Below are positions 45,837 to 64,000 of a stretch of 64,000 nucleotides of DNA, in pieces. A model generated the notes under the pieces. That model saw only the letters and a list, made by a program, of their open reading frames with translations, was not told the origin of the DNA and did no database searches. The translations under genes were made by a program, and so were the position numbers. The stretch is from Nanobdellota archaeon. GTDB lineage: Archaea > Nanobdellota > Nanobdellia > Pacearchaeales > GW2011-AR1. The stretch is taken from assembly GCA_030647965.1 (NCBI GenBank), contig JAUSIT010000016.1, forward strand, positions 8,429-72,428. The letters are read 5' to 3'. The first letter of the stretch is position 1; each line of letters opens with the position of its first letter.

Positions 45837-46020
45837 CTATTACAAATCATAATCAAACAAATATAAATTAATAACAACGCAGCATAAAGACAACTTTTAA
45901 CAACACAATATAGAAATAACACAGACGCACAAGAGACAAACAGACAATAAAAATCTGAAATACCCTGCGAAACAAGATAAAAACAAGAAAGAAAGGAGAA
46001 ATATCTCAAAAGAAGATTAG

Positions 46021-46148
46021 TTTTAACTAGATTTAACCTTAATATATTCCTGAAATACCTATTTAATAGACTTCTAAATAGATTTTGAAATTGAAATAGC
46101 TTAATTTAAAACAAAAAGAATTGAAATAGCTTTTAACTGGGTTTAACA
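46021..46148. repeat. paired direct repeats at the compositional boundary
   Basis: ttttaactagatttaacc (46021-46038) / ttttaactgggtttaac (46131-46147); ttgaaatagctt at 46091 and 46121; preceded by AC-rich T-poor stretch 45840-45990. Confidence 0.5.
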
Positions 46149-46177
46149 AACAGAAACATCTCTGAAAGGAGAGGAAT

Positions 46178-46435
46178 ATGTATTATATCGCTGGGATATT
46201 TGTTCTTTTCGCATCTATCTTTCTCGGAGGAGAAAAAGAGCTAAAGATGCAGGTATTAATTGGCTGGGGAATTGGGATTATTGGCATGGCAATATGGTTC
46301 ATCGTAGGGGGGATTGAAAAGTTGGTAAAAGAAATCTCTGAACTAAGAAAAGAAATCTCCAAACCGAAGAAGGAAGAAGCTCCCCCGGAAACTGCCAGAA
46401 CTGACGAAGGTTCCCAAGCCAGCATGGTAAGATAA
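46178..46435 (+). CDS. small membrane protein
   Basis: SD gaaaggagagg; two TM helices. Confidence 0.45.
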   Translation: MYYIAGIFVLFASIFLGGEKELKMQVLIGWGIGIIGMAIWFIVGGIEKLVKEISELRKEISKPKKEEAPPETARTDEGSQASMVR

Positions 46436-46455
46436 AATTCTCTACGAAGATGATT

Positions 46456-46494
46456 AAGGGCCTTATTGCATTCAAAAGGGTGAGGCCCTTTAAT
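46456..46494 (+). terminator. intrinsic terminator-like hairpin
   Basis: aagggcct...aggccctt stem followed by taattt. Confidence 0.45.
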
Positions 46495-46522
46495 TTGAAA
46501 ATAATTATTTACCCCATATAAA
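46495..46522 (+). promoter_or_regulatory. sigma70-like promoter (TTGAAA ... TATAAA)
   Basis: ttgaaaataattatttaccccatataaa. Confidence 0.4.
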
Positions 46523-46562
46523 TAGCAATTCATAAATTGAAATATCTCTGAAAGGGGGAATT

Positions 46563-46742
46563 ATGTTAACTATAATAGTGATTTTTTCAGCATTACTTTT
46601 GAATTCATTTAAAGTATGGGGGGGTTTATGGGTATTCTTTTGGTTTATTAGAAAAGAAGGGACAATAATTTTTCCAATTATTAATCTTTATATGTGGGTA
46701 TGTTGGTATATGATTATTTTTACTCTTTTTTCAATACATTAA
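46563..46742 (+). CDS. small membrane peptide (59 aa)
   Basis: SD gaaagggggaattatg; hydrophobic. Confidence 0.35.
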   Translation: MLTIIVIFSALLLNSFKVWGGLWVFFWFIRKEGTIIFPIINLYMWVCWYMIIFTLFSIH

Positions 46743-46761
46743 CTTTTTCAAAGGAGGGAAT

Positions 46762-46905
46762 ATGTTCTTCTCATTTGTAATTCTGCCTCCCCCTGAAGTT
46801 AGCGACCCTGGAGCATATTTGGGGTGGATGATAATAAACTTCTTTTTGTGGTATTATATTCTTAATGGGATTGTAAACTTTAGTACCATGAAAAGAAAAA
46901 AGTGA
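46762..46905 (+). CDS. small membrane peptide (47 aa)
   Basis: SD caaaggagggaatatg. Confidence 0.3.
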   Translation: MFFSFVILPPPEVSDPGAYLGWMIINFFLWYYILNGIVNFSTMKRKK

Positions 46906-46951
46906 TAAAAATTAGCAAATGAGTAATTAAATCACAATCAATCTTTTTCAC

Positions 46952-47197
46952 ATGGAGAGTGTCATGAACCGCATAATATTAATTATCTTAGGCATTTTTC
47001 TTTTATCTTTTGGAATTGCATTGCTCTGCGATGTTAGTTATAATAATGAAGTTGAATCCCTGGACTTCTATTTGCTATCTGGAATGGTGCATTTTCACAA
47101 CTTTAACATAGGAGTTATTTATATTATCTGCGGGCTCATCGCACTTGGAGGCCTTTTCACTATTCGCTTTTCGAAATGCATTGCATACTTAATGTAA
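46952..47197 (+). CDS. small membrane protein
   Basis: two TM helices. Confidence 0.4.
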   Translation: MESVMNRIILIILGIFLLSFGIALLCDVSYNNEVESLDFYLLSGMVHFHNFNIGVIYIICGLIALGGLFTIRFSKCIAYLM

Positions 47198-47249
47198 TTT
47201 TTTATAGCAAACAAACAAAACAAACAACAATCAAAAAACGAGGTTTGTC

Positions 47250-47636
47250 ATGAAAAATCGGAGAGATTATATCTTTGGAATTTGTTTTGCTTGGGTAGTC
47301 TTAATCATGGTAATCTTTAGTGCCACAGATAGTTCCAAGAATTTCATCGGCTCTAATTTATTGGGTTACAGCACTTGCCCAAACTGTGGGGATAGCTGGT
47401 GGTGGAAAGAATCTAAGAGCATAACCTTTGATTCAAATATTAATGCAATCATCTTTGAAGAAGGAGTGATGATTTGCAAAGAGTGTGTTTTAAATCCCAA
47501 AACCCTTGATGAAAACAGGATTTGCAAAAATCTTTTGAAATGGAGCTGGGATGAAGAAAAAGTTCAGAAAGTCAAAGAGGCAATAATTCAATACAAAGAT
47601 TCTTCATTACAAGAACAAAATAAAATGTTATTCTAA
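47250..47636 (+). CDS. membrane-anchored zinc-ribbon protein
   Basis: 'CPNCGDSWWW...CKECV'. Confidence 0.45.
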   Translation: MKNRRDYIFGICFAWVVLIMVIFSATDSSKNFIGSNLLGYSTCPNCGDSWWWKESKSITFDSNINAIIFEEGVMICKECVLNPKTLDENRICKNLLKWSWDEEKVQKVKEAIIQYKDSSLQEQNKMLF

Positions 47637-47706
47637 CTGGAAGAATAATTTAGCAGTGAGCAAAGAGCAAATAATCAAAAACAACTTTTTTCTCTGGAGG
47701 TATATC

Positions 47707-48192
47707 ATGAATGAATATGTAAACATCTTCATTCTCGCAACAATCTGCGGGTCAATTGCTTACACCATGACTGAATCAGGGATTTTCGAGCCGTACAGAA
47801 TTTTTTGTAAAAACGTCTGCAAAAAGCTCGGAGAACTTTCCAGTTGCGGATATTGCACTGGTCACTGGGTGGCTTTCTTTTTGGTTGCAGTTTACCAACC
47901 CAGAATTGTTCACAGCAGTTTCTGGCTTCTGGATTATTTCCTGACTGCGATTCTTATTGCATGGATTTCTGGATTGTGGTGGAGATTTCATGTATTTGTC
48001 GGCCAGGTGATTGTAGCCCTGAAAGAAAAAAACAGAGTCTCTAAGGAAGAAAGACTTGCAATGATGGCATTATTTGAAGAGGGTAAAAATACAATCCCTC
48101 AAAGTAATGAGATCCCCGCAATTAAAAAGCAAAGAGCAAATAATATTATACCTTTTGAAAGAACAAACATTATTCCATTTAGAAGGGGGTGA
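47707..48192 (+). CDS. membrane protein
   Basis: SD ctggaggtatatcatg; ORF-track start 47656 lies inside promoter-like motif. Confidence 0.45.
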   Translation: MNEYVNIFILATICGSIAYTMTESGIFEPYRIFCKNVCKKLGELSSCGYCTGHWVAFFLVAVYQPRIVHSSFWLLDYFLTAILIAWISGLWWRFHVFVGQVIVALKEKNRVSKEERLAMMALFEEGKNTIPQSNEIPAIKKQRANNIIPFERTNIIPFRRG

Positions 48193-48197
48193 AAATA

Positions 48198-48371
48198 ATG
48201 TGGAAAATTAGACTAATATCTTCCCAGGAAATATTTGAATCACTTTCAGATGAAGAACCTGTTCAAGACACAATGAGCGGGGTATTATGCATTTCTTGGA
48301 CAAGTATTCAGGGAAAACCCTACACCCTTTACCCCGGGGTCGTTGCCACAGTTATCATCAAGGGAGAATAA
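48198..48371 (+). CDS. small protein (57 aa)
   Basis: SD agaagggggtgaaaataatg. Confidence 0.3.
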   Translation: MWKIRLISSQEIFESLSDEEPVQDTMSGVLCISWTSIQGKPYTLYPGVVATVIIKGE

Positions 48372-48390
48372 CTATTCAACATCTTCGCCA

Positions 48391-48426
48391 AGAGAGGCAT
48401 TATATTTCTATTATATAGTGCCTCTT
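48391..48426. repeat. 37-nt palindromic hairpin repeat, copy 1
   Basis: agagaggcattatatttctattatatagtgcctctt. Confidence 0.7.
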
Positions 48427-48481
48427 AAATTAAAAAAGCATTGAGCAATTAAACAAACAACTTTTTTCCAGGAGGCATGTC

Positions 48482-48844
48482 ATGTTAATCTTTGGAATTC
48501 TTTTGGCACTCGTTATCCTCGGGGTAGTAGTGTATCGTTTTGCACCAAAGGATGTTGGGAGCACTATCATGGTCCTCTCTTTGGGCATGATTCTTGTAAC
48601 TATGTTAACTATCCCACTCGCCAGAAATCAGTATATCCAAGAAATTTATGGTTTCAGGGATTTTAGCGAATTCTGCAAAGAAACTGGGGCCATAGGGTTT
48701 AAGCAGTCAGAAAATTATGACGAGTTTATGCAACAAGTCAAAGAAAAAAATATCTGGCTTGTCAGAACCCAACATTTTAATTCTGGCATCTGGTTTGATC
48801 TCTGGATTCCGGATGAAGTTGATTTGCTTGAACAGATTAAGTAA
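48482..48844 (+). CDS. membrane protein
   Basis: SD ccaggaggcatgtcatg. Confidence 0.45.
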   Translation: MLIFGILLALVILGVVVYRFAPKDVGSTIMVLSLGMILVTMLTIPLARNQYIQEIYGFRDFSEFCKETGAIGFKQSENYDEFMQQVKEKNIWLVRTQHFNSGIWFDLWIPDEVDLLEQIK

Positions 48845-49131
48845 CTGAAAACAATTTCACAAACAAAAACTTTTCACAATCTAAAACAAAAAAAGGAGTA
48901 GGCCATGAAAGCAATGAAATATGTTTTTATTATGGCCAGCGTTATTATCATTATTGCCGGAGCAATAGTGATGGTTATTCATCATCTCAAAAGCATAGCA
49001 GACAATCTTAACTGGATGCTCTTTGGCGATGGTGCTGGCATGAATGTTGTTCGCAAATAAATCGTTTACAAAAAACAATAATATACTAAACAAAAAAAAC
49101 TTTTCACAAAAACAATTTTCGGAGGTGTGTC

Positions 49132-49566
49132 ATGTCAAGAATGTTGGTTCTTATTATGGTTGCGCTTTTTGCGACCTGTGTTTTTAACGGCTGTGGAGAA
49201 TCTAAATATATTTACGGAGTTGTTTTAAATGAATATGGGACCATTGTCAAAAGGCAAAACTTTATTGAACGTTCTGAAGGAGCATTATTTGGAAACGATT
49301 CAATAAAGCTAAATGATCCTACCTATGTAATTCAATTTCAGGTGGTTTCTGTAAGAAGTTCTAAAAAAATATATGATTCCGGCCCTTACCTTGGAAAAAT
49401 TTATACTTTTCAAATTATGGGAGGGAGATATAATAATTTAGAAGCATTAAATATTGCAATACACAAAGGAACAAAAATCAGAATTCCCCAGAGCGAATTT
49501 AATTTTTATTTAAATGGTAATGTAGGCAAAATATTTGATTCAAATGTTAGTGTATTAGATGAATAA
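49132..49566 (+). CDS. lipoprotein
   Basis: 'LFATCVFNGCGES' lipobox-like; SD ggaggtg. Confidence 0.5.
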   Translation: MSRMLVLIMVALFATCVFNGCGESKYIYGVVLNEYGTIVKRQNFIERSEGALFGNDSIKLNDPTYVIQFQVVSVRSSKKIYDSGPYLGKIYTFQIMGGRYNNLEALNIAIHKGTKIRIPQSEFNFYLNGNVGKIFDSNVSVLDE

Positions 49567-49835
49567 TCCAATCTGAAAAAGAAAGGAGGTGAGAATAATG
49601 TTGCTAGGAACAATACTACAAATCGGAGGAGCAATAATTATGATTGTTAGTGTAATTGGTTTGAGCATTACACTATACAATAACCATAAATCAAACAAGC
49701 ATCCTGAAAGGAGGTGATCTAATCTATCTGTTTTTATTTTACAAATCTTAAAACGAAAGGAGATAAACAACAAACAAATGATTTACCTGATTCATCACTA
49801 TTTTCAAACTTCAATCATCAACAAGGAGAAATTCT

Positions 49836-50075
49836 GTGAAAGCTCTTATGATTGCTTTGCCTATCTGGGCGTGGATTATTGTTACGCTCATCGCTGTTTT
49901 TATTCTCTGGAACATTCTCGCCATCATCGGTGCGATCATCGGCCTGTTGTTCTGGGTCATCGGTTCGCTCATCCATTCCATCATCACTCTCGGCATTATC
50001 GGCCTGATTATTTGGGGCGGATACAAAGTCTGGAACTGGGTGAAAAACACCATCGGCAAGGAAACCATTTCGTAA
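49836..50075 (+). CDS. small membrane protein (GTG start)
   Basis: SD caaggagaaattctGTG; three hydrophobic helices. Confidence 0.45.
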   Translation: MKALMIALPIWAWIIVTLIAVFILWNILAIIGAIIGLLFWVIGSLIHSIITLGIIGLIIWGGYKVWNWVKNTIGKETIS

Positions 50076-50353
50076 TCTTCACACCGCCGCGAGAGAGCCT
50101 GATGATTAATTCTGAGCATTGGGCTCTCTTGCTTTTTTCAAAAAAGAAAAAGAAACGAGCAGTACATTTACAAAAAACAAAAGAGGCAATAAAATGTTAA
50201 GCTTGAAGAAAAAGATTGAAGCCAGAATCAGACTCCGTGTTTTTCTGGTAGCAAAATATGGAAAGCGCTGGTACAAACGCCCGCAATTTTTAAGATTAAT
50301 TAATAAGCGGACCAAGTGAAAACAATTTTACAATTTGAAGGGAGGTGAAAAAA

Positions 50354-50731
50354 ATGTCAAAGATGAATATCAGTACATCTCTACTGCTAATCCTTGCCAC
50401 AATGACTTTAATTCTTCTTGGTGCCGGATTTATTGAGCTGATAAAAATCGCAATATTATTAACTATAACCATTGCTTTTGTTCATGGCATAGTTAATTTT
50501 AAAATAAATTTCGGCAAAAAAGCATTGATCACATCGATTAGCAATAAAGTTACCATCTGTTTAAGTTTGGCAATACTATTGTTTTTCTTTGGAGGGCCAT
50601 TAGTGTTGCCTGTTAAATTATTTATATTAGTCTTTTTTGGAGAATTTGCAATATATGGAATCTGGATTTATGTAAAAAATAAATTCTTCAACAAGACTAT
50701 CCCGCCGACAACTCCTCCTGCATCAGCGTAA
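50354..50731 (+). CDS. membrane protein
   Basis: SD gggaggtgaaaaaaATG (track start 50345 is GTG within SD). Confidence 0.45.
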   Translation: MSKMNISTSLLLILATMTLILLGAGFIELIKIAILLTITIAFVHGIVNFKINFGKKALITSISNKVTICLSLAILLFFFGGPLVLPVKLFILVFFGEFAIYGIWIYVKNKFFNKTIPPTTPPASA

Positions 50732-50742
50732 CATCTTCGTCA

Positions 50743-50779
50743 AGAGAGGCATTATAGTTCTATTATATAGTGCCTCTCT
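50743..50779. repeat. 37-nt palindromic hairpin repeat, copy 2
   Basis: agagaggcattatagttctattatatagtgcctctct. Confidence 0.7.
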
Positions 50780-50956
50780 AAATTGAAAACAATTTAACTT
50801 TTGAAGGGAGGTGAACAATATGCGACGATGTTTCTACTCCAACCATAGAATGAGATAACCTACCTCAGGCGGTCCCCCGACATAATCCAAAGAGATTACA
50901 AGTCGGGACGCGTTACAAAAAAAGTTTTACAAAAATCGTTCTTGTTATGATTTTCA

Positions 50957-51000
50957 AAAGAGGGTTTGATATCTGAAATATTGAGCCCTCTTTAATTTTT
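50957..51000 (+). terminator. Rho-independent terminator (8-bp GC stem + T-run)
   Basis: aaagaggg...ccctcttt aattttt. Confidence 0.5.
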
Positions 51001-51027
51001 GAAAATAATTATTTGTTTTAATATAGA
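50999..51027 (+). promoter_or_regulatory. sigma70-like promoter TTGAAA-N17-TATAGA
   Basis: ttgaaaataattatttgttttaatataga; near-identical copy at 55023. Confidence 0.55.
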
Positions 51028-51084
51028 AAAAAATTAGCAGTGAGCAAACAATTTTTATAGGAGAAAAAAGAAAAGAGGTGAAAA

Positions 51085-51354
51085 ATGAAAACAATTTTTG
51101 TAGTACTTCTCCTCATTGCAGCAATTATTTTTCTAATAGTTGATTGCAATGAAAAAAGAAAAATCAGAAAGATTCAAAGGAGAAAGATCATGACCCAAAC
51201 CAAAGACGACCTCAGCATGACATCGTTTGGCATTCCTTACAGTCAACTCGATGATGAAAGGAGAAAACACATCGATCTGCTTTTTGCTCGACAGATTTAT
51301 CAAGAAGTCAAACCCCCACGAATTAACCTTAAGAAAGAAAGAGGGATGCAATGA
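51085..51354 (+). CDS. small membrane-anchored protein
   Basis: SD agaggtgaaaaATG. Confidence 0.45.
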   Translation: MKTIFVVLLLIAAIIFLIVDCNEKRKIRKIQRRKIMTQTKDDLSMTSFGIPYSQLDDERRKHIDLLFARQIYQEVKPPRINLKKERGMQ

Positions 51355-52079
51355 TAACTCGCAAAGTACAGATTATCGTCGCGCTGTTTTCTATTCTCTT
51401 TGTTTTGACTGCCCTTTCCATTGTTGGCCCTTGCAGCAAGGCTAACGGTGAAAACGCCAAGACTGAAACTCCGATTACTGCAAGCTGGGACAACACCTAT
51501 TCCAGCAAGTATGTATTCTGGGGAATCCAATTCAGCAACAAGGATGTCTATCAATCGCTCATCACTATTAACAAAGGGCATTCCACACTCTTTGTTTTCA
51601 GCAACAGGGATTTCGAAACCTCGACGTGGAATGAACACGATGTGTTTTTCGATTACACAACTCCTATCAACAAAATGGTAAATATGTCAGCGGGCTACAA
51701 CTATTACAACTGCCGGCTCGGCGACTGGGAAAGCTATAACGAAATTTACATTGGCGCCAGTTTCAATACTTTCCTCTCGCCGGCAATCAGCTATCACAAT
51801 ATTTTCGGCTTTGAAAACGGAAATTACTTCGAGGCCAGTGTATCCAAAAGCTTCCAGATCAACGACAAGATTACTCTTTTATCTTCTGGAAAACTTGGAT
51901 ACAACGACAAAGCATTCAGAACAGCCACGGATTTTAGCCATACTGAATGGGGAATATCTGCACCGATTACATATCTTCCCCATTTCATAATCTCACCGTT
52001 TGCAAAGTATTCATTTGCCCTGGCTGATGATCTCAAGAATGTTTTCTACGGCGGTGCGACTGCAAGTTACAAGTTCTGA
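51351..52079 (+). CDS. secreted beta-barrel-like protein ending in aromatic residue (OMP-like)
   Basis: Signal anchor, alternating amphipathic strands, C-terminal ...ASYKF. Confidence 0.4.
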   Translation: MITRKVQIIVALFSILFVLTALSIVGPCSKANGENAKTETPITASWDNTYSSKYVFWGIQFSNKDVYQSLITINKGHSTLFVFSNRDFETSTWNEHDVFFDYTTPINKMVNMSAGYNYYNCRLGDWESYNEIYIGASFNTFLSPAISYHNIFGFENGNYFEASVSKSFQINDKITLLSSGKLGYNDKAFRTATDFSHTEWGISAPITYLPHFIISPFAKYSFALADDLKNVFYGGATASYKF

Positions 52080-52096: not shown

Positions 52097-52133
52097 AGAG
52101 AGGCATTATAGTTCTATTATATAGTGCCTCTCT
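52097..52133. repeat. 37-nt palindromic hairpin repeat, copy 3
   Basis: agagaggcattatagttctattatatagtgcctctct. Confidence 0.7.
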
Positions 52134-52198: not shown

Positions 52199-52684
52199 AT
52201 GTTTGGAAAATTCACATCTTTTGTGATCGCACTTATAATCACTTCCATTGTGGCGATCGGGATTTATCACAACAAAATCAATTATAATACTATTTTCAAC
52301 GAAGAAGAAATTTCGTCAAGCATTGAAGAGCCCACAAACGAATTAATTACTTTTAATATTCCTGTAATATTTGCTGATGGGGCTCAAGGACAAGTCAAAG
52401 GAATATTTTATTATCATTATTCAAATTTATTTGATTCATCAGAAATTAAAGTAATTAAAGATCGTAAAATGTTCCTCCTGAATGAAATCCACAAGGCATT
52501 ATGGATTATTGCAGTAAATTTTACTGCACCAATAACTCTTGATGAAAAAAAGAAATATGTTTCAGAGGTAATTTCTACAATCAACGAAAATCCAAGATTC
52601 AAAGATTCTAATCTCAAAATCTGGTTTATTGATTTTGGTCAAATTAAGCCCGGAGTTTTTGATCAAGGTCTTTTAATTCAGTAA
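52199..52684 (+). CDS. membrane-anchored hypothetical protein
   Basis: SD cacgaggagaatcatcATG. Confidence 0.45.
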   Translation: MFGKFTSFVIALIITSIVAIGIYHNKINYNTIFNEEEISSSIEEPTNELITFNIPVIFADGAQGQVKGIFYYHYSNLFDSSEIKVIKDRKMFLLNEIHKALWIIAVNFTAPITLDEKKKYVSEVISTINENPRFKDSNLKIWFIDFGQIKPGVFDQGLLIQ

Positions 52685-52768
52685 CCTTCCAGCGTTCAGA
52701 ATTGAGCAAAAACTTTTCTAAGAAAGGGGAACAATATGAAAATCCAAAAAAGAAGGGAGGTGAAAAAC

Positions 52769-53251
52769 ATGAAAAGATTTTTCTCATTCGCAACAATCTT
52801 GATAACATTGTTGCTTAGTTTGATTACGGGCTGTAGTGAAAATAATGAATCAAATTATAATAACTTCAGCTCAGATTCAGACTCAACAAAAACAGGGACC
52901 TCAATAGATTCGCTCAAAACCCCTGTTTCAATACTGACTGGAAAGATTGTCCAAATTCAAACAGGCAGTTTAATTGTCTATACAGGAAATGGATATGTCT
53001 TCCATGAATTCAAATATGTAATGGTCGAAGGAACTGATGGGGGATTTTATATTCTTATTTATCCCTATGCTGTGAAAGCAATCTGGGAAAAAGAAGCAAC
53101 TATAAAATTCAGGCCGTTACATAACGGGCAAATTGATTCAAACACCTTTATCAATCTTTTTCTATTCTCCCGCAATGATGCTTCATTCATTAATCATCTG
53201 CCAATCGAAGCAGATGGCATCATTATCAACAACGGAATTCAATACAAGTAA
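52769..53251 (+). CDS. lipoprotein
   Basis: 'LLSLITGCSENNE'; preceded by conserved 35-nt leader at 52733. Confidence 0.5.
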   Translation: MKRFFSFATILITLLLSLITGCSENNESNYNNFSSDSDSTKTGTSIDSLKTPVSILTGKIVQIQTGSLIVYTGNGYVFHEFKYVMVEGTDGGFYILIYPYAVKAIWEKEATIKFRPLHNGQIDSNTFINLFLFSRNDASFINHLPIEADGIIINNGIQYK

Positions 53252-53347
53252 CAGATTTTACAATCAACAGATTTTACAATCAACAGATTTTAAATTGGAG
53301 AAGGAGGAATTTATGAAAATCCAAAAACGAAGGGAGGTGAACAAATT

Positions 53348-53584
53348 ATGTGGATACTCCTCGAATGGTGTTTGGTAATCACAGTCGCAGTGTTTATCAT
53401 AAGCCAGATAATCCTCCCGCCCTTTATTAACAAGCGTTTTTTCTGGATTCTTCGGAAAAAAGAGAAAAAGCTCGATGCTGTTGGAAACGAGCTGATTGAT
53501 GCGCAGGTTGATTTAGAAGTGGCTGAAACTCGTGCGGCAGTCAAGAAAGTTCTGGATAAAACCAGTAAATTGAATCACAAGTAA
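53348..53584 (+). CDS. small membrane protein
   Basis: preceded by conserved leader at 53313. Confidence 0.45.
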   Translation: MWILLEWCLVITVAVFIISQIILPPFINKRFFWILRKKEKKLDAVGNELIDAQVDLEVAETRAAVKKVLDKTSKLNHK

Positions 53585-55772: not shown

Positions 55773-55964
55773 ATGAATCTGGACGTAAACTCATGTCTTA
55801 TCGGAGTAATAATAACAGTAGCAGTTTACACTATATTGATTATCTTTTTTGCCAAGGATAATATCAACAATAACATTATCAAATTCAAAACCAAATGTCC
55901 GAGTTGTGGTCATGAAATCACCGAAGACAGAAAGGTAGAAGTGGGATTAAAAATTTCTGAATAA
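55773..55964 (+). CDS. small membrane-anchored zinc-ribbon protein
   Basis: 'CPSCGHEI'; preceded by conserved leader at 55739. Confidence 0.4.
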   Translation: MNLDVNSCLIGVIITVAVYTILIIFFAKDNINNNIIKFKTKCPSCGHEITEDRKVEVGLKISE

Positions 55965-56046
55965 CAATCAGAAAAGTAAGAAATTATTTTCACGAAAATA
56001 AAACATCAACATTTTTTCTTTAAGGAGGTGAATTTATTTGAGTGAC

Positions 56047-56316
56047 ATGAGGGCAATAGTACAAAGTATTATTCCTGTAGGAGAGCACGGGCCATATGTT
56101 GTAACAACTCTTGACCCAAACTCTGACCGTCTGATATCTGGCTCTATAACATTTTCACTTAGTTCAGATGTCTGGAAAGAAAAAAGATGGCCAACTCCAG
56201 GAACATTTGTTATGCTCAACTATCTTTCTAGAAAACCAGCAGGATGGAGAGCAGAACAAGCAAGACTTTATACTCCTGAAGACGAAGCAATGTTAACAAA
56301 ACCACCACAATCTTAA
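56047..56316 (+). CDS. hypothetical protein
   Basis: SD taaggaggtgaattt. Confidence 0.35.
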   Translation: MRAIVQSIIPVGEHGPYVVTTLDPNSDRLISGSITFSLSSDVWKEKRWPTPGTFVMLNYLSRKPAGWRAEQARLYTPEDEAMLTKPPQS

Positions 56317-56347
56317 CACAACAATCTAAAACGTGAAAGGAAAGAAC

Positions 56348-57037
56348 ATGGAATCAGAACCGAAACCTGAAAAAAGAGGATTTGGTCAAAGACTCATGAG
56401 GATAATTTTTGAAGATGAAGAAAAACCTTCCACTCAACAATCTTCCCAGGTCAACAAAAATCCTGATTCACCAACTCCGGCGCCTGTAGGAAATTTTGTT
56501 TCTCCTACGCCGACATCAACACCTGCACCTTTTATTTCTGGAAGTGCTGTGGACAAACAGCTTCTTGATTTTCTGAGAAGTCAAGTGAACAAAGCAGCAC
56601 CAGGAGTATTTTCACAATTCCAAACTCTGTTAGACAATCTTTCAAGTGTACTAACAGATCGTGCTCTTCTTTTCAGGGCTGCTTTCAAAGCTGCTGAAAC
56701 AGGCCACCAGATGAAAAAAGAAACTCTCGTGGCTGCTTTTCAGGCCAGACTTCAAATCCTCGAAAGTGAAAAACAAAAATTCGAGGAAGGAGTTGAAGCC
56801 CGGAGGAAAGAAGTAGTGGAAGGTAAGGAAAAACAAGTCAATCAGGTCAGCATTCAGATTGAAGAAATGAGCAATCAACTTTTAAAAGCTCAGGAATTGC
56901 TCAAGACCCTTACCAACGAAATCACTGAGCAAAATCAAAAAATCGAGACAAAGCAGAGAGAATTTCAGCTGGCTCATGCAGCTCTCGAAGCTGAACTCAT
57001 CAATGATCTCAACAACATCACAACTCACCTCAAGTAA
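56348..57037 (+). CDS. coiled-coil protein with Pro/Thr-rich linker
   Basis: track start 56333 is GTG; ATG at 56348. Confidence 0.4.
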   Translation: MESEPKPEKRGFGQRLMRIIFEDEEKPSTQQSSQVNKNPDSPTPAPVGNFVSPTPTSTPAPFISGSAVDKQLLDFLRSQVNKAAPGVFSQFQTLLDNLSSVLTDRALLFRAAFKAAETGHQMKKETLVAAFQARLQILESEKQKFEEGVEARRKEVVEGKEKQVNQVSIQIEEMSNQLLKAQELLKTLTNEITEQNQKIETKQREFQLAHAALEAELINDLNNITTHLK

Positions 57038-57069
57038 TAAGACAGCTTGCTGTCTAGAAAGGTTACAAA

Positions 57070-58146
57070 ATGAACTCTTCAAGTTTCACACCTAAATCGT
57101 TCTGGGAAAAACCCGAAGGAACATGGGGTATGGTTATTGGAGTTCTCGGAGCTCTTGGGCTCGGCTGGGTTCTTTACAAAGCCCTTCCGTTCATCATCGT
57201 GCTTCTCCAGAACGTTATCACTACAATACTCCTCGGCGTGGCTCTCTTCGCGATTCTCTGGGTGCTTTTTGACAAAAGATTCCAGATTCTGGTTTCTTCA
57301 ATGTACAAAAGCGCAGTGAGATTTATCGCCGGAATCTTTATCACCATCGACCCCATAGGTATTTTGAAAAACTATGTGGAGGGTCTCCAAGATAATCTGA
57401 ACAAGATGAGCACCCAGATCAGCAATCTTCGGGGGCAAATGCGCAATCTCGAAATTCTCATAAAACAAAACGAGAAAGAGCGCATCGATGCCCTTACCAT
57501 GGTCAAGAGAGCTCAAGAAGCTGGCAAAAGGGGAGTTGTTGTTCTCAAGGCCCGCAAAGCCGGCAGACTTGAAACTTCAAATGTCACGCTTCAGGACCTG
57601 TTCAATAAGATGGAATTATTGTTCAGAGTTCTGGAAAAAATGCGTGAGGCATCTGGACTTCTGATCGAAGATCTGGTTGATGAAATCGATGTCAAGTCTC
57701 GTGAGCGCAAAATGGTTTATGCTGGATGGTCTGCAATTCGTTCAGCTAAATCAATAATCAATGGTGAAAATGACAAGCGGGCAATGTTCGAGCAGACCAT
57801 GGATTATCTTGCTGCAGACTATGGTGAGAAAGTTGGCGAGATTGAAGATTTTGTCTCAATGTCTGCCGGCTTCCTCGATACCATTGACCTGCAGAACGGC
57901 GTCTATGAAGAAAACGCCATGAAGATGCTCGAAGAATGGGAAAGAAAGCCTGAGTCCATTCTTCTTGGCAATGACAACAAGCAGATTATCATCGCCGCAG
58001 CCAATGACCCGAATGATGTTTTCAATTTCGCGTTCGATATTAATGGAAAACCTGCTGACGCGAAGTTTGTGGAAATACCTCGGAAGACTGCAAAAGAGGG
58101 AGCTTCTGATGAAGGCTACCGCAAATTCCTCGACGATGATAAGTAA
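57070..58146 (+). CDS. membrane-anchored coiled-coil protein (PspA/TelA-like?)
   Basis: two N-terminal TM helices then long charged helical region. Confidence 0.35.
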   Translation: MNSSSFTPKSFWEKPEGTWGMVIGVLGALGLGWVLYKALPFIIVLLQNVITTILLGVALFAILWVLFDKRFQILVSSMYKSAVRFIAGIFITIDPIGILKNYVEGLQDNLNKMSTQISNLRGQMRNLEILIKQNEKERIDALTMVKRAQEAGKRGVVVLKARKAGRLETSNVTLQDLFNKMELLFRVLEKMREASGLLIEDLVDEIDVKSRERKMVYAGWSAIRSAKSIINGENDKRAMFEQTMDYLAADYGEKVGEIEDFVSMSAGFLDTIDLQNGVYEENAMKMLEEWERKPESILLGNDNKQIIIAAANDPNDVFNFAFDINGKPADAKFVEIPRKTAKEGASDEGYRKFLDDDK

Positions 58147-58228
58147 TCTTCAAGAATTACACCTCTGATTCATCTGCATTACTCACAGATTTATTTTCAA
58201 ACACTCAACAAAACGCAGGAGTAGTACC

Positions 58229-59812
58229 ATGAAGATGAACCCGTTTCCCAAGTTTGTGCTGATTGCAGTTATTGTCAGCGCGATTATTTTTGGCATTATG
58301 CAGCTCATCAAAGTTCCGGCAGTCAAGAACCTGGTCGCTCCCGAGGGCAAACAGGCGACAACCAGTGTGAGCAAGGACGTCAAGAAGGCCATGAAGGACG
58401 GCGCTGAAATCGTCAACGTCGGTGTTGTAACCTGGGGTGGTTATGCTGGTGGCCAGTATTTCAACAATGGCTTCAACCCCTCGAAAGATTCCCGCTACTT
58501 TAGCGAGTATGGAATCTTTGTCAAGTTCCAGGTTTTGGATGATTTCAATGCATCCAGAGCTGCATGGAAAAAAGGCGAAGTCGACCTTATGTGGGTTACT
58601 GCCGACGCCTATCCTACTGAAACTGCTGGTCTTATCGACGCTGGTTACAACCCCAGATTCATTTTTCAGGCTGACTGGTCAAGAAAAGGTGATGCAATCG
58701 TCGCGATCAACGGCATCAATTCTGTCGCAGACCTCAGTGGGAAAAAAATCGCTGTTGCACCTGGAACCCCGTCGCACAGTCTGCTTCTGAAAACTCTCGA
58801 AGCCAATAACATGAGCTATGAAAATATTACTCCTGTTATCGTTCCCTCTGCAATCGACGCTGCTGCAATGTTCAAAGCAGGCAAAGTTGATGCTGCAGTA
58901 GTATGGAGCCCTGATGATGCAGACTGTGTGCGGACTGTTCGTGGTTCGAAAGTTTTGATTTCAACAGGAACAGCTCCGTTCATCATCGCCGACGGATTTT
59001 TCGTAAATGCTCAGACTCTCGAGAAGAAACACGATGCTATTGTCTCCTTTGTCGAGGGTTTTCTACGCGGCGCTGCTGAAATTAACACAGATCCGGCTGC
59101 AAAGCAGAAAGCCATTCAGATTCTCATGACTGGTCTGAATCTTGATCAGCAGCTTGCTGAAAATGCGATTAACAACGTCCGCCTGACTACCTTTGGTGAC
59201 AATCTGAATTTCTTTGGATTGAATCAGAGCTATACTGGTGTAAAAGGTGAAGACCTTTACAATCAGATGGGCAAAATGTACAGCTCAATCAAAGTCGGTG
59301 ACTCTTTCCTGGCGCCTTCAAATCTGCCTGCCTGGAGAAATGTTACTGATTTGAGTATTATTCGTGAAATCCAGTCTCGCGGAAAACTGACTTCTGCCGG
59401 CGATGCTGCTGAAGGTGAAATCAAATTTACCAAAGCCAGCCAGAAGGATATAACTGCTACTGCATTATCCAGGAAATCCCTGACAGTTACTTTTGCGACT
59501 GGCTCGGCGGCGTTGGATCAAAATGCCAAACTCATTATTGAAATGGGTTTTGTCGATATTGCCAAACAGTTTGCCAGTGCACGTATTCGCATCATCGGCC
59601 ATACTGATAATGTCGGAAGCAGGGAAGGAAATATTTCCCTTTCCAAGAAACGCGCGAAATCAGTCGCGGACTTTCTCGTCAGTGAATATGGCTTTGATTC
59701 CAATCGCTTTATCATCGACGGCAAAGGTCCTGATGAACCGGCAAGCACCAATGACACTGAAGAAGGACGCGCTGCAAACCGGAGAACTGAATTCCAGCTT
59801 CTGAACAACTGA
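58229..59812 (+). CDS. NitT/TauT(SsuA/NMT1)-family substrate-binding protein fused to OmpA-like C-terminal domain
   Basis: SBP core; C-terminal 'IIGHTDNVGSREGNISLSKKRAKSVADFL...NRRTEF' OmpA/MotB peptidoglycan-binding motif. Confidence 0.55.
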   Translation: MKMNPFPKFVLIAVIVSAIIFGIMQLIKVPAVKNLVAPEGKQATTSVSKDVKKAMKDGAEIVNVGVVTWGGYAGGQYFNNGFNPSKDSRYFSEYGIFVKFQVLDDFNASRAAWKKGEVDLMWVTADAYPTETAGLIDAGYNPRFIFQADWSRKGDAIVAINGINSVADLSGKKIAVAPGTPSHSLLLKTLEANNMSYENITPVIVPSAIDAAAMFKAGKVDAAVVWSPDDADCVRTVRGSKVLISTGTAPFIIADGFFVNAQTLEKKHDAIVSFVEGFLRGAAEINTDPAAKQKAIQILMTGLNLDQQLAENAINNVRLTTFGDNLNFFGLNQSYTGVKGEDLYNQMGKMYSSIKVGDSFLAPSNLPAWRNVTDLSIIREIQSRGKLTSAGDAAEGEIKFTKASQKDITATALSRKSLTVTFATGSAALDQNAKLIIEMGFVDIAKQFASARIRIIGHTDNVGSREGNISLSKKRAKSVADFLVSEYGFDSNRFIIDGKGPDEPASTNDTEEGRAANRRTEFQLLNN

Positions 59813-59903
59813 TTCAACCTCACATTTAAACCAGACTGAATAAAAGAGTGGGATAAATTTTGATATTTGTCTCACTCTTTAAATTTCAGAAAGCGAGTTT
59901 TTT

Positions 59904-60722
59904 ATGAATGAGTTTCGCTTTAAAGATCTGTTTGAATTGCGAGGAGAACTTTCATCAAAGGTAAGCTTGATTTGTGAAATCATTGGAGTTGGATTTATTC
60001 TTGCTGCCTGGCAGATTATTACCCAATACAAAATTCTGCCAACAGGAATTTTTCCGTCGCCCTTAAAAATCCTGCTTGCTTTTCCTGAACTGCATTTTCA
60101 CGAGGGTCTGGTTCGCAATATGTTTTATTCATTAAAACTAAACCTCCTCGGCACTTTTGAAGCAGTTCTACTTGCAATTCCGCTCGGGTTTATCATCGGG
60201 CTTTTTCCTGGATTCAGGGCAATATCCTACAGATATATTAAGGCAGTAAGATATCTTGCCCTAACACTCCTCGTCGGGGTTTTCATTGCAATGTTCGGTA
60301 TTTTTGATATGATGAAAATTCAGTTTCTTGCATTTGCGATTTTCATCTATCTCTTGCCGACAGTGATTCAAAGAATTGATGAAACCTCGCAAGTTTACCT
60401 CGATACAATATATACTCTTGGAGCAAGAAAGTGGAAAACAATTCGTTATGTTTTCATACCTGATGTTCTTTCAAGAGTATATCCTGATATTGTAAACCTT
60501 GCTGCATTATCCTGGACTTACATTACCATCGCCGAGGTTGTCAATACTTCTTCTGGGGGCATTGGAGCACTTTCATTTCTTTCTTCAAGGCAATCAAGAA
60601 TTGACAAAACCTTTGCAATAATAATAGTCATTCTTTTAGTTGGCTTTATTATTGACAAGGTTCTCATTGCCCTTGGAAAAGCTCTCTTTCCGTATATGTA
60701 TGTAACAAAAGGAAGGAGATAA
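59904..60722 (+). CDS. ABC transporter permease (NitT/TauT family)
   Basis: 6 TM; 'LGARKWKTIRYVFIPDVL'. Confidence 0.6.
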   Translation: MNEFRFKDLFELRGELSSKVSLICEIIGVGFILAAWQIITQYKILPTGIFPSPLKILLAFPELHFHEGLVRNMFYSLKLNLLGTFEAVLLAIPLGFIIGLFPGFRAISYRYIKAVRYLALTLLVGVFIAMFGIFDMMKIQFLAFAIFIYLLPTVIQRIDETSQVYLDTIYTLGARKWKTIRYVFIPDVLSRVYPDIVNLAALSWTYITIAEVVNTSSGGIGALSFLSSRQSRIDKTFAIIIVILLVGFIIDKVLIALGKALFPYMYVTKGRR

Positions 60723-60723
60723 T

Positions 60724-61584
60724 ATGGACGTTCCTATCACTCCTGTTTCCCCTCTGCCTGCAAACGGGCTTAATCCTGTATATTTTCCTGATAGTCCTCT
60801 TCCTGATATTATTGAACTGCGTAATATTTCGCAGTCCTACGATGGAGGGAAAAATTGGATTATCAAGGATTTAAATTTCAGGATTGAAGACCAACCTGCA
60901 ATGGGCGAATTTATTGTTATCCTCGGAAGATCTGGATGTGGGAAATCAACACTGCTTCGCTATCTTTGTGGCCTTCAAAAACCAACGCAAGGTGAAGTGC
61001 TGATAAATGGAAAACCAAGAACAGAAGAAACAGTCATCGCCCAGGTTTTCCAGCAGTACTCTTCTTTTCCATGGTATAGTGTTCTTGAAAATGTCATGCT
61101 TCCTTTAATTATTCAAGGAGTTGACAGAAGACAAGCAAAAGAAAAAGCCATGGAGATGATTCAACGCGTCGGTCTTGAAGGTCATGAAAAAAAGTGGGCG
61201 CTCTATCCACTTCTTTCTGGAGGCCAACTGCAACGAGTTGCAATCGCTCGAAGCCTTATTTCAAATCCCCACATCCTTCTTATGGATGAACCATTCGGCG
61301 GTTTGGATACTTTCACAAGGCATCAAATGCAACTCATGCTTGCCTCAATCTGGGAAGTGCTTCAGTCAACTGTGATATTTGTAACTCATAATATTGACGA
61401 AGCAGTTTTCCTTGCAGATAAAATTTATATTATGTCTGCAAATCCAGGGCAGATTGTCAAGAAGTATCATGTTGATTTGCCCACGCATCGCGACAAAAGC
61501 ACAAAGCGCGACCCTCGATTCACCCAGTTAGTTTGGGAAATCGAAGATGGAATCGATGAAGTCGCGAAGGCGTGCGGGAAGTAA
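60724..61584 (+). CDS. ABC transporter ATP-binding protein
   Basis: Walker A 'GRSGCGKST', signature '[15 protein letters not shown]', Walker B 'ILLMDEPF'. Confidence 0.75.
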
Positions 61585-62217: not shown

Positions 62218-62784
62218 ATGAAATCGTTTTTGATGATTCTCGTGGCTATTTTTCTCGCCAGCTTCATGTTTCTGAATGTTCCTGAGGTTTACTGCCAGAG
62301 CAATTCTTCGAGTGAGCAGATTCTCGTCGATACCAAGGACCTTCCGGCTGACGTCGTCGCCCAGATTAAAGCGAAACAGAAAGTCGAGAGCGTCGGTAAG
62401 TGGGTTGGAATGGGCAAGGAAATCGGCGAAGCAATGAATGGTGCCATGACTGCCCTGGAAGAACATGTTGATAAAATCGGAAATACTCGCGTCGGGAAAT
62501 TCACCATGTTTCTTGTTGCTTACAAAGTCATCGGCACTGATATGATTCAGTTGCTTATCGGTCTTCCCTTACTCATCATCGGCACCATGATATTTATTAT
62601 AACTTGGTTCCGAAGCTGTGTTAAACGAAAAGTCAAAAAAATAACATACGCAGCGGTCGGTGATAAAAAGGTAATCTCTGAAACAAGCGAGACCCTTGAA
62701 AACCCCGATTATGACTACTGCTGGGCATCAGTAGTTGTATATGCAATCTTTCTTGGCATCTGCACTGCAATCATTTTCACATAA
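62218..62784 (+). CDS. secreted/membrane protein
   Basis: SD caaggagtatatcATG; signal + C-terminal TM. Confidence 0.45.
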   Translation: MKSFLMILVAIFLASFMFLNVPEVYCQSNSSSEQILVDTKDLPADVVAQIKAKQKVESVGKWVGMGKEIGEAMNGAMTALEEHVDKIGNTRVGKFTMFLVAYKVIGTDMIQLLIGLPLLIIGTMIFIITWFRSCVKRKVKKITYAAVGDKKVISETSETLENPDYDYCWASVVVYAIFLGICTAIIFT

Positions 62785-62853
62785 TCACATTCAATCTTCT
62801 AAACAAATTCAGGAGTTTAACAATCAAACGAATTTAAAGAGGAGGTGAAAAAC

Positions 62854-63048
62854 ATGACATGCTTAATATCTGCCTTTATCTGCCTGCTGGCGGCGATTGT
62901 TCTTCTGGCTCTCCTCTGGCCGATTTTCTGGGCAATCTTCAAAATCACTCTGGGGGTCTTTATCATTGCGATTATTTGGAAATGGTTGATGAAAAGGACC
63001 AAGGATAAACCTACTACTCCGACCCCGCCGACAAATCCCGCCATGTAA
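62854..63048 (+). CDS. small membrane protein with Pro/Thr-rich tail
   Basis: SD gaggaggtgaaaaacATG. Confidence 0.4.
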   Translation: MTCLISAFICLLAAIVLLALLWPIFWAIFKITLGVFIIAIIWKWLMKRTKDKPTTPTPPTNPAM

Positions 63049-63059
63049 CATCTGGCTCC

Positions 63060-63093
63060 GAGGGCATTATGATTTTAATTATATAGTGCCCTT
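63060..63093. repeat. palindromic hairpin repeat, variant copy 5
   Basis: gagggcattatgattttaattatatagtgccctt. Confidence 0.55.
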
Positions 63094-63137
63094 TTATTTT
63101 TAACAATTTAATAAAAAAGAAAAGAGGTGAAAAAACC

Positions 63138-63257
63138 ATGAAGAAAAAGAATGGAGTGTATCGGGTTTGTCCTAACTGCAAAACCGAAAACCCCAAGCAT
63201 TCCACTAAATGCCCGAGTTGCAAGCGCGATTTACGCAAGGGTAAAAGTGGTCAATAA
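63138..63257 (+). CDS. 39-aa zinc-ribbon peptide
   Basis: 'CPNCKTENPKHSTKCPSCK'; SD agaggtgaaaaaaccATG. Confidence 0.4.
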   Translation: MKKKNGVYRVCPNCKTENPKHSTKCPSCKRDLRKGKSGQ

Positions 63258-63286
63258 TAAGTAAGTTGTAAATCCTTTATTTAAAA

Positions 63287-63323
63287 AGAGAGGCACTATA
63301 ATTCTATTATATAGTGCCTCTCT
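63287..63323. repeat. 37-nt palindromic hairpin repeat, copy 6 (perfect arms)
   Basis: agagaggcactataattctattatatagtgcctctct. Confidence 0.7.
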
Positions 63324-63327
63324 TAAA

Positions 63328-63356
63328 TTGAAAATAATTCTCAATTTTTATATATA
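63328..63356 (+). promoter_or_regulatory. sigma70-like promoter TTGAAA-N17-TATATA
   Basis: ttgaaaataattctcaatttttatatata. Confidence 0.5.
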
Positions 63357-63409
63357 GAAAGAAACGAGCAGTTAAAAAACAAAACAATTTTTTTTCTTGG
63401 GGGTGTATT

Positions 63410-63829
63410 ATGAAAAAGTTTTGGTGGTGGGTGATTGGCTTGATTGCTTTGCCGTTAGTGGTTCTGGGTCTGAGTACATTTTTCGGGGCTGACAACACTA
63501 ACGAACTGGTCGTGCTTTCCACCCTTATTACAATCGGTGGGCTGATTCTGGTGGCAGCAAGTCAACAGTCCACAAAAACATTAAAGCCCCAGGTGCCTCC
63601 AGCTATAAGACATATCTATGTCTTTTCAGCCTCGGGAATTCTTCTGCTTCACTCTATTGTTGTTGGGAAAATTGGGAATAGTCCAACATGCAGCTTCCCT
63701 ATAGAATCTATTTCATGGGAAGATGATAAAGGAAATTCTCACCGACAATATCTTTCCGGTGCAGTCAGTGTTCATATTTCCAATGTTCCTCTTCCGGATT
63801 CTCTGACTCCGCCGGCACCGCAGAAGTAA
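63410..63829 (+). CDS. membrane protein
   Basis: SD ttgggggtgtattATG; three TM helices. Confidence 0.45.
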   Translation: MKKFWWWVIGLIALPLVVLGLSTFFGADNTNELVVLSTLITIGGLILVAASQQSTKTLKPQVPPAIRHIYVFSASGILLLHSIVVGKIGNSPTCSFPIESISWEDDKGNSHRQYLSGAVSVHISNVPLPDSLTPPAPQK

Positions 63830-63863
63830 TCTCCTGGCAGTAATCAATTGTTTTTCTCTGAAG

Positions 63864-63893
63864 GGGTGTCATAGTTCTATTCTATGATACCCT
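63864..63893. repeat. palindromic hairpin, variant copy 7
   Basis: gggtgtcatag-ttctatt-ctatgataccc (same loop, different stem). Confidence 0.45.
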
Positions 63894-64000
63894 TGGGATT
63901 TTAATAAAAATTTTTTTGCATTTTTTTTTTTGGCTTTCTATTATATACTTTAATATAGTATATTAAGATATATATGTTAGGATAGATAAATAACTAAGGG

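Follow-up and report, generated by a model that had tools for sequence, protein, structure and literature searches.

What is a block of GC-richer genes with bacterial-looking start signals doing in an AT-rich archaeal chromosome, and how did it come to be there? The question is raised by a 64,000-nt stretch of contig JAUSIT010000016.1 from a Nanobdellota archaeon (hereafter the window), in which genome architecture changes abruptly at about 46 kb. An earlier note on this DNA had left a choice between an acquired island and an assembly chimera. We favour the island: both junctions are reproduced, host DNA resumes on the far side, and the flanking genes gatE and aspS are adjacent in several relatives. 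The block is physically continuous with its surroundings, breaks with them in composition and in the way genes start, and encodes proteins whose identifiable members have bacterial or phage affinity. We conclude, with a probability of roughly 0.8, that it is a ~17.8-kb island of bacterial or bacteriophage origin, acquired recently and horizontally, in the chromosome of a DPANN archaeon.

Composition and continuity of the island

The GC content of 1-kb windows is 0.23-0.38 between 1 and 46 kb (mostly 0.25-0.30, about 27% overall) and 0.31-0.47 between 46 and 64 kb, and at 200-nt resolution the rise is placed at 46.1-46.3 kb. The break is strongest at synonymous sites: length-weighted GC content at third codon positions (GC3) is 0.151 (range 0.09-0.27) in 46 upstream open reading frames (ORFs) and 0.411 (range 0.18-0.66) in the 26 ORFs tallied in the island, which spans ~46.1-63.9 kb. 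The tetranucleotide correlation with the upstream profile falls to a minimum of 0.61 at 56-60 kb. The switch at ~46 kb that had been estimated by eye is thus recovered by GC windows, GC3 and tetranucleotide correlation alike, and the island has what is looked for in a genomic island, a composition and codon usage sharply different from those of the host. The GC content of 40-48% first given for it holds as an upper range; the mean for island ORFs is ~41%, and the portion at 46-53 kb reaches just 32-39%. As had been described, the genes downstream are short and lie on one strand (26 of 26 tallied ORFs on the + strand). At least one transmembrane (TM)-like hydrophobic segment is encoded by 23 of the 26, compared with 9 of the 46 upstream ORFs.

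The host genes upstream include those for archaeal-type ProRS, GatB, GatD, GatE, TGT (tRNA-guanine transglycosylase) and a DHH/RecJ-like protein, so that, of the archaeal genes named earlier, gatD, gatE and the DHH/RecJ-like gene were recovered. A 107-nt tRNA match at 21762-21868, found with Rfam (54 bits) and not with ARAGORN, is consistent with a tRNA of the archaeal intron-containing type. GatE has relatives at 49 genome loci, led by Woesearchaeota, Pacearchaeota and Nanoarchaeota metagenome-assembled genomes (MAGs), with up to 71% identity; judged by these sequence matches, the host is a Woesearchaeota/Pacearchaeota-like DPANN archaeon. Three features define the edges of the island:

40404..41846, + strand: gatE, the left syntenic anchor, in host-type AT-rich DNA (Pfam GatB_N, E=5e-55)
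45837..46177, no strand: left junction, an A-rich, low-GC spacer of 341 nt, recognised from the sequence and the GC profile and lying inside Logan contig L002 at 100% identity
63830..64000, no strand: start of the right junction, where GC content drops to 23-30%; a NYN gene (- strand) and the N-terminus of an archaeal aspS (+ strand) lie beyond it, in Logan contig L001

Both junctions are crossed at 100% identity by contigs of a separate (Logan) assembly, from run SRR13727527, that were retrieved by exact-protein look-ups. Contig L002 corresponds to window positions 44939-50441 and crosses the left junction; L001 corresponds to positions 54992-64000, crosses the right junction and continues for a further 1229 nt. 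From ~63.9 kb, L001 has a GC content of 23-30%, followed by the NYN gene and then by the N-terminal OB-fold of an Asp/Asn-tRNA synthetase. A TATA box lies at about -31 from the ATG of this aspS gene, in the layout typical of the host, and the encoded fragment is 66% identical to a Pacearchaeota homologue. The NCBI record, filed under Nanoarchaeota, places GatD (MDO8516916) on the same 95,896-nt contig as the island proteins (MDO8516951 to MDO8516961).

In three relatives (loci L019, L007 and L013) an aspS homologue lies 99-522 nt after gatE on the same strand, and in two others (L046 and L009) the two genes are 5.8 kb and 7.8 kb apart. Here the distance is ~23 kb. Nothing comparable to the island content was found within ±10 kb of gatE in the relatives. 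Host DNA is therefore found on both sides of the block, and synteny is broken, although adjacency of gatE and aspS is not seen in the two closest relatives (see below). On our reading the island lies in a variable gap between gatE and aspS and splits their pairing.

Several smaller observations concern the anchor and the junctions. GatE is short here and in its Woesearchaeota/Pacearchaeota relatives (L003-L019), at ~480 aa, and its Pfam match is the GatB_N catalytic domain only; a separate GatB, encoded at 23422-24804 on the - strand, has a GatB_Yqey domain. In L004 and L005, gatB, gatD and gatE lie within ~5 kb of each other. The left spacer contains two copies each of the short repeats TTTTAACTRGRTTTAAC (46021 and 46131) and AATTGAAATAGCTT (46089 and 46119). 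Between the island and the NYN gene, the AT-rich flank in L001 holds a hairpin with a 17-bp perfect stem, AAAAAGTTTTGCTCTTG ... CAAGAGCAAAACTTTTT (L001 positions 9062-9118, equivalent to window positions 64053-64109), which has no Rfam match. Rfam gave chance-level matches only at both junctions (a CRISPR-DR65 model at 46091-46127, E=0.29, and PreQ1, E=0.52).

Affinities of the island proteins

The cargo appears to be almost wholly concerned with the cell envelope: an operon for PspA-like, OmpA-fusion and ABC-transporter proteins, an SPFH-like protein, a TorF-like porin and ~18 small membrane or secreted proteins. The larger features, including a substrate-binding protein (SBP), are:

56038..61584, + strand: six-gene bacterial-type operon (Pfam, NCBIfam; synteny in bacterial contigs)
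start 56038, + strand: operon genes 1 and 2, for a 92-aa protein and a 234-aa coiled-coil protein
57070-58146, + strand: PspA/Vipp1-like membrane protein, 358 aa, with N-terminal membrane helices
58229-59812, + strand: membrane-anchored NMT1/SsuA-type SBP fused to an OmpA C-terminal peptidoglycan-binding domain, 527 aa
59904-60722, + strand: ABC permease
60724-61584, + strand: ABC ATPase
53644..54966, + strand: SPFH/band-7-like membrane protein, 440 aa (phrog_11908, E=2e-45, full length)
51351..52079, + strand: TorF-family putative porin-like secreted protein, 242 aa, ending in ...YKF (TIGR02001, below cutoff)

The OmpA C-terminal domain and the NitT/TauT-type ABC transporter, both of which had been read from the translations, are well founded. 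In the SBP-OmpA fusion, OmpA_C (PF00691) scores 69.8 bits, above its gathering threshold of 27.2, across residues 421-518 and the whole profile, and the TD...LS..RA..V and NRRTE motifs are visible; Pfam and NCBIfam confirm the NMT1/SsuA-type SBP, the permease and the ATPase. The case for a PspA-like protein is weaker and comes by way of homologues and a structural model. In Pfam the query itself has no PF04012 match, but several homologues (46-51% identical) carry PF04012 and some are named 'phage shock protein A'. An alignment-based AlphaFold2 model (pLDDT 68.6) gives a long helical hairpin like that of PspA/Vipp1, members of the ESCRT-III superfamily, and these are its best matches in the PDB, albeit weak ones (E ~1e-2, target TM-score 0.55-0.82). 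The protein differs from PspA/Vipp1 in its N-terminal membrane helices and in being always linked to the SBP-OmpA protein and the ABC transporter. Both of the large ORFs checked, those for the SBP-OmpA and PspA-like proteins, are full length when compared with their homologues.

The named relatives of the operon proteins are bacterial. Those of the SBP-OmpA protein, at 50-56% identity, come from Moranbacteria, Caldithrix, Bacteroidota, Chitinivibrionales, Paceibacteria and others, all of them bacterial; among the matches listed, the sole archaeal entry is the query itself, and the same is true of the PspA-like protein. The same gene order is found in Candidatus Moranbacteria contigs (beside topA, dprA, pth and hisS), in one contig whose neighbouring genes have type IX secretion system (T9SS) tails, and on ENA contig L052, with 76.5% nucleotide identity over 5.3 kb and an 83%-identical homologue. 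Contigs of bacterial type that bear the operon also carry SmpB, IF3, TopA and DprA. A four-gene core (PspA-like, SBP-OmpA, permease and ATPase) is present in ~40 further contigs, with GC contents of 0.29-0.63 and including candidate phyla radiation (CPR) bacteria; it is widespread in bacteria. The core loci are window positions 57070-61584 and L052-L056, L059 and L063-L103. For the PspA-like partner of this core no family model or name was found, nor was there a characterised example of its combination with an SBP-OmpA protein and ABC transporter, and the module is apparently uncharacterised. A metagenome scan with the permease returned relatives of at most 52% identity, no closer donor and no locus that unites the operon with SPFH or porin genes. 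The SBP-OmpA protein had no match in the plasmid collection, and scans of viral contigs with the PspA-like and SBP-OmpA proteins returned no match.

The SPFH-like protein has its clearest relatives in phages. Its match to Pfam Band_7 (PF01145), at 20.6 bits and E=5e-4, falls below the cutoff of 23.6, so that the SPFH assignment made earlier is tentative and leans on phrog_11908 and on the crAss001 match. Its closest homologue, at 56% identity, is encoded by the 462-kb uncultured phage LR756500.1; identity to the crAss001 'SPFH-domain/band7-family protein' and its relatives is 34%. The family occurs in crAss-like, Vibrio and huge phages, and NCBI names the product of 53644-54966 an SPFH domain-containing protein. 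Its resemblance to SPFH proteins is therefore weak by the band-7 profile and clear by the crAss001 protein. There is one distant match in the plasmid collection and one 35%-identical locus in the viral contigs. Within ±20 kb of the SPFH gene of LR756500.1 no other island gene was found. That 'huge phage' locus (L057, 149700-190875) has a local GC content of 24%.

Beta-barrel-like proteins ending in Phe had been proposed; one candidate, porin-like, was recovered. Against TIGR02001 the porin-like query scores 22.1 bits (E=9e-5), below the cutoff of 47. A word-based search found only the protein itself and an exhaustive search found 405 relatives; of 40 aligned family members (the query and 39 relatives), 16 match TIGR02001, the best at E=4e-11, and the C-terminal F is conserved in the family consensus. 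A single-sequence model is all-beta, with a pLDDT of 35 that is too poor to confirm a barrel. The best relative lies on a contig of just 954 nt, which has no gene context. A protein of this outer-membrane type points to a diderm donor, or its phage, if the family assignment is right.

Taken by best hits, then, the products group with foreign lineages: SBP-OmpA and PspA-like with bacteria, SPFH with phages, and the porin with TorF-like proteins. This is the outcome of the affinity check that had been suggested: wherever a source names them, relatives of the identifiable island proteins are bacterial or phage.

The remaining island genes are short:

46178..51354, + strand: run of short ORFs led by Shine-Dalgarno (SD) sites, for small membrane or secreted proteins of unassigned family (SD sites, TM-like segments; one weak DUF1360)
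52199..53584, + strand: three short SD-led ORFs; signal or TM segments in the products and a lipobox in one of them
55107..55964, + strand: two small membrane ORFs, of 175 aa (5 TM-like segments) and 74 aa
61701..63829, + strand: four short membrane ORFs, one matching phrog_33832 (E=3e-9) and one holin-like (PF07332, E=2e-4, below cutoff)

In all, ~18 short ORFs could not be placed in a family, weak DUF1360, holin-like and phage-family matches aside, and among those at 46178-51354 the weak DUF1360 match is the only Pfam or PHROG family found. At 49778-50200 (+ strand) alternative ORFs overlap: one frame encodes 140 aa and is His-rich, and the other (49836-50075) encodes 79 aa with three TM-like segments and has a GC3 of 0.66, the maximum for the island. 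There are no paralogues among the island ORFs, so the cassettes did not arise by gene duplication. PADLOC found no defence-system match among the island proteins.

Gene starts, promoter-like motifs and a repeated hairpin

Upstream of the island, transcription units open with genes whose ATG is preceded, at a distance of 29-32 nt, by a TTTAAATA or TTTATAAATA box, a spacing that implies leaderless mRNAs, and SD-like motifs occur chiefly on internal operon genes. Within the island, almost every ORF has GGAGGTG, AGGAG or GAGG 6-10 nt ahead of its start. Counts over all ORFs agree with both parts of the earlier description, the boxes before upstream starts and the SD sites of the island: a TATA-like box at -33 to -24 precedes 16 of 46 upstream ORFs and 2 of 26 island ORFs (p=0.012), and an SD-like motif precedes 17 of 26 island ORFs and 10 of 46 upstream ORFs (p=4e-4). 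The mechanically called ORF starts at 50345, 52736, 53311, 55740 and 62845 fall in the SD region or leader, giving repeated 'MKIQKRREV...' N-termini. The true starts of these five ORFs are probably the next ATG after GGGAGGTGAAAAA, and their annotated N-termini may be wrong.

The promoters described earlier as textbook examples are real as motifs and less than textbook in detail. The pattern TTGAAA-N17-TATANA occurs exactly at 50999, 55023 and 63328 and at no other site (0.31 expected). However, the -10 hexamers (TATAGA, TATAAA and TATATA) lack the conserved final T and were not listed by the sigma-70 scan, and two of the three sites are copies of one 83-nt repeat:

50999..51080, + strand: promoter-like motif and 5'-leader repeat, TTGAAA-N17-TATAGA followed by AGCAGTGAGCAAAC... 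and an SD site; second copy at 55023-55104, related sequence at 63328-63392

AGCA is conserved 7 nt past the -10 hexamer, and several island leaders share the pattern AGCA(A/G)TGAGCAAA...CAAAAAACGAGG. The A/T stretch TTTTAATATA of the repeat could equally be read as an archaeal TATA box. More generally, the island has 78 sigma-70-like sites (45.1+/-6.6 expected) and 26 terminator-like sites (13.5+/-4.0 expected), a portion of this excess falling within the repeats; 20 kb of upstream DNA show no excess (124 sigma-70-like sites with 125.9 expected, 3 terminator-like sites with 5.4 expected).

A second repeat is a 35-nt palindrome, GAGAGGCAYTATARTTCTATTATATAGTGCCTCTC (repeat element GAGGCAYTATANTTCTATTATATAGTGCCTC), of which the window has five copies, with 0 expected, all on the + strand and all inside the island. 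It had been reported as 37 nt long; the repeat is real, with a core of 35 nt. Its copies are:

48392..48426, + strand: copy 1, a 3' hairpin after an ORF
50744..50778, + strand: copy 2, 13 nt past the stop codon of ORF 50345-50731
52098..52132, + strand: copy 3, after the porin-like gene
54984..55018, + strand: copy 4, between the SPFH gene and the promoter-like repeat, which it directly precedes
63288..63322, + strand: copy 5

The last island ORF is followed by a degenerate relative, at ~63862-63895. Every copy is just 3' of a stop codon and three are followed directly by the promoter-like repeat; the spacing between copies is 1.35-8.3 kb and takes in several ORFs and the six-gene operon. The predicted fold has a stem of 14-15 bp and a free energy of -19 to -23 kcal/mol (z-scores -4.7 to -6.6). 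Four of the copies have a stem position at which the + strand forms a G.U pair and the other strand would have a C.A mismatch, which suggests that the element acts at the RNA level, as a 3'-end hairpin. With no U-tract after any of the five copies, the palindrome is not a canonical intrinsic terminator; of the hairpin-plus-T-run terminators claimed for the island, some do qualify (for example 50957-50993), the repeated palindrome not being among them. Exact-pattern scans of viral and metagenome collections with the palindrome gave 0 matches.

Together, these signals suggest that the expression layout of the donor has been kept, with SD-led leaders and several units set between a promoter-like repeat and a 35-nt 3' hairpin. 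We note that SD sites and hairpins are not exclusive to bacteria and that the promoter matches are imperfect.

Two known systems come closest to this arrangement. REP elements are short, imperfect extragenic palindromes with many copies per bacterial genome, often accompanied by a RAYT transposase. The island palindromes are like them in being 35 nt long, intergenic, 3' of stop codons, in a single orientation and in multiple near-identical copies, and unlike them in numbering only 5-6, all within 18 kb; there is no RAYT transposase in the window and no GTAG-type head on the palindrome. Phage 'morons' and bacterial genomic islets are self-contained units of promoter, ORF and terminator. The island units likewise combine a promoter-like sequence, an SD leader, a small ORF or a few of them, and a stable hairpin at the 3' end, and some of the ORFs belong to phage families, but the island has no surrounding phage genome, its hairpins have no U-tract and its -10 elements no final T. 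By analogy, bacterial REP elements and phage moron units may be the closest counterparts of the repeats.

Origin of the island and its meaning

The case for a recent transfer follows from the observation that GC3 has not drifted to the host value, and the case for a diderm donor, or its phage, from the porin and the OmpA domain; we infer both. Several points weigh against the acquired-island reading. GC3 is heterogeneous within the island (0.18-0.66), and in none of the other loci examined do the SPFH, porin and operon genes occur together, so the island may be a mosaic rather than the product of one event. The searches gave no donor: apart from L052, operon relatives are at most 59% identical, and affinity is read from best hits and the names of their sources. 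In the two closest relatives (L003 and L004) there is no aspS within 3-10 kb of gatE, and the synteny argument thus depends on more distant relatives. The Logan contigs were probably drawn from the same reads as the MAG, in which case they test the assembler and not the sample. Finally, the usual marks of mobility are missing: Pfam and PHROG found no integrase, transposase or virus core gene among the island ORFs, ARAGORN and Rfam found no tRNA at the borders, and no att-like or other repeat of at least 11 nt, direct or inverted, is shared by the two junctions.

An alternative is that the block is the archaeon's own mobile element, integrated or decayed, such as a DPANN virus, a plasmid or a conjugative element. 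The bacterial-like genes would then be cargo, and the operon that lies between gatE and the island may belong to the element:

41983..45836, + strand: AT-rich five-gene accessory operon, for a coiled-coil protein, an FHA protein, a protein of unknown type, a RIO-like kinase and a HerA/FtsK-like ATPase (Pfam FHA, RIO1, DUF87/Zot)

The ATPase, of 647 aa with a C-terminal tail, has weak similarity to CedD/TraD and to HerA/mad8, and a translocase directly upstream of the island would suit such an element. So would the short same-strand ORFs, the repeated promoter and hairpin modules, the many orphan membrane proteins, the three ORFs that match phage protein families, and TTTTAATATA if it acted as an archaeal TATA box. 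However, a native archaeal element would be expected to have host codon use and leaderless starts. No capsid, portal, terminase, replication or integrase genes and no att repeats were found, the PHROG matches (phrog_11908, 33832 and 19575) being to accessory or unknown families only; the viral-contig scans were empty for the PspA-like protein, the SBP-OmpA protein and the palindrome and gave only the one SPFH locus. The ATPase operon has host-like composition (GC3 0.10-0.20), which the island does not, and is outside the GC-rich island. We therefore regard an archaeal mobile element as unlikely. The accessory operon itself has no counterpart by tblastn in the 49 related loci around gatE, exact look-ups with either of two alternative starts of the HerA-like protein returned no record, and the function of the operon may lie in signalling or defence, or else in DNA translocation.

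A bolder proposal, which we consider a long shot, is that an episymbiotic archaeon expresses the island as a bacterial envelope kit with which it binds to, or exploits, the wall of a partner bacterium, and that the block was assembled or moved by an undescribed cassette mechanism using the 35-nt hairpin and promoter module. On this proposal, the SBP-OmpA protein would bind peptidoglycan, the PspA-like and SPFH proteins would remodel membranes, and the small proteins would be secreted.

On the favoured reading too, any use of the island to the archaeon would be conjectural. The host cell is not known to have an outer membrane or murein, and it is not obvious what a porin or a peptidoglycan-binding domain would do there; the large ORFs checked are intact all the same. 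For the murein-directed proteins of Woesearchaeota and Pacearchaeota, Castelle et al. have put forward attachment to the walls of bacterial cells (PMC8204110). The OmpA fusion might act in a like manner, which is speculation.

An assembly or binning chimera, in which an archaeal contig was joined to a bacterial one, is very improbable, although the GC and GC3 step is sharp and sits at an AT-rich, low-complexity spacer and the island repeats are absent from the host part. Two false joins back into the same archaeal locus would be needed, and a separate assembler gives both junctions at 100% identity. Host-type DNA resumes with aspS, the usual neighbour of gatE in relatives, and the junctions have no common repeat of at least 11 nt to mislead an assembler. 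In short, neither an irreproducible junction nor an unrelated far flank was found.

Short ORFs in one orientation interspersed with near-identical palindromes also recall an integrase-less integron array (CALIN), in which the 35-nt palindromes would be attC sites. Known attC sites are ~57-141 nt long. The palindromes of the island are too short, with (near-)perfect stems and no extrahelical bases, and their 1.35-8.3-kb spacing spans several ORFs and an operon with promoter-like sequences of their own. Core pairs of the form R''(RYYYAAC)...R'(GTTRRRY), 50-150 nt apart, number 0 in the island on either strand, with 1.3 expected by chance, and no IntI or other recombinase domain was found in the 25 island ORFs or the upstream ORFs scanned. 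We rejected this model as barely credible, even though CALINs in archaea, some of them in Nanoarchaeota, and cross-domain sharing of cassettes are documented, and have been proposed as a route of transfer between domains (Ghaly et al. 2022, PMC9668308). We give equally little credence to native archaeal DNA whose composition reflects amino-acid or expression constraints on envelope genes: conserved upstream genes are slightly GC-richer (up to 0.38) and archaeal internal operon genes also have SD sites, but GC3 rises from 0.15 to 0.41 (up to 0.66) at synonymous sites, the named relatives of the proteins are bacterial or phage, and the relatives of the host have nothing comparable around gatE.

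A horizontally acquired island of bacterial or phage origin would be in keeping with what is known of DPANN archaea, in which transfer from bacteria is documented (Castelle et al. 2021, PMC8204110; Dombrowski et al. 2020, PMC7414124; Jaffe et al. 2019, PMC6389311). The earlier description of the locus as a striking inter-domain transfer is therefore too strong, and the island is better regarded as an unusually clean case of a known process. As in documented cases, a genome of the Woesearchaeota/Pacearchaeota type holds otherwise bacterial families, and the cargo is rich in membrane and extracellular proteins. Unlike them, the island is one contiguous, undrifted 17.8-kb block with two mapped junctions and an empty-site comparison, and it keeps non-host start signals and its own repeat family. 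The text of Castelle et al. (PMC8204110) has 0 matches for OmpA or PspA, and neither the PspA-like/SBP-OmpA/ABC operon nor the TorF-like porin was found there.

The island leaves the current picture of archaeal evolution unchanged. Its value lies elsewhere. Evidence for transfer into DPANN archaea usually comes one gene at a time and from MAGs, with mis-binning a constant concern, whereas here the block is physically inserted. The island flags a widespread bacterial module composed of a PspA-like protein, an SBP-OmpA fusion and an ABC transporter. With its donor composition and donor style of gene start, it offers a natural setting in which to ask what becomes of SD-led, promoter-bearing bacterial genes when the host appears to depend on leaderless mRNAs, and it bears on the question of whether DPANN symbionts recruit peptidoglycan-binding proteins.

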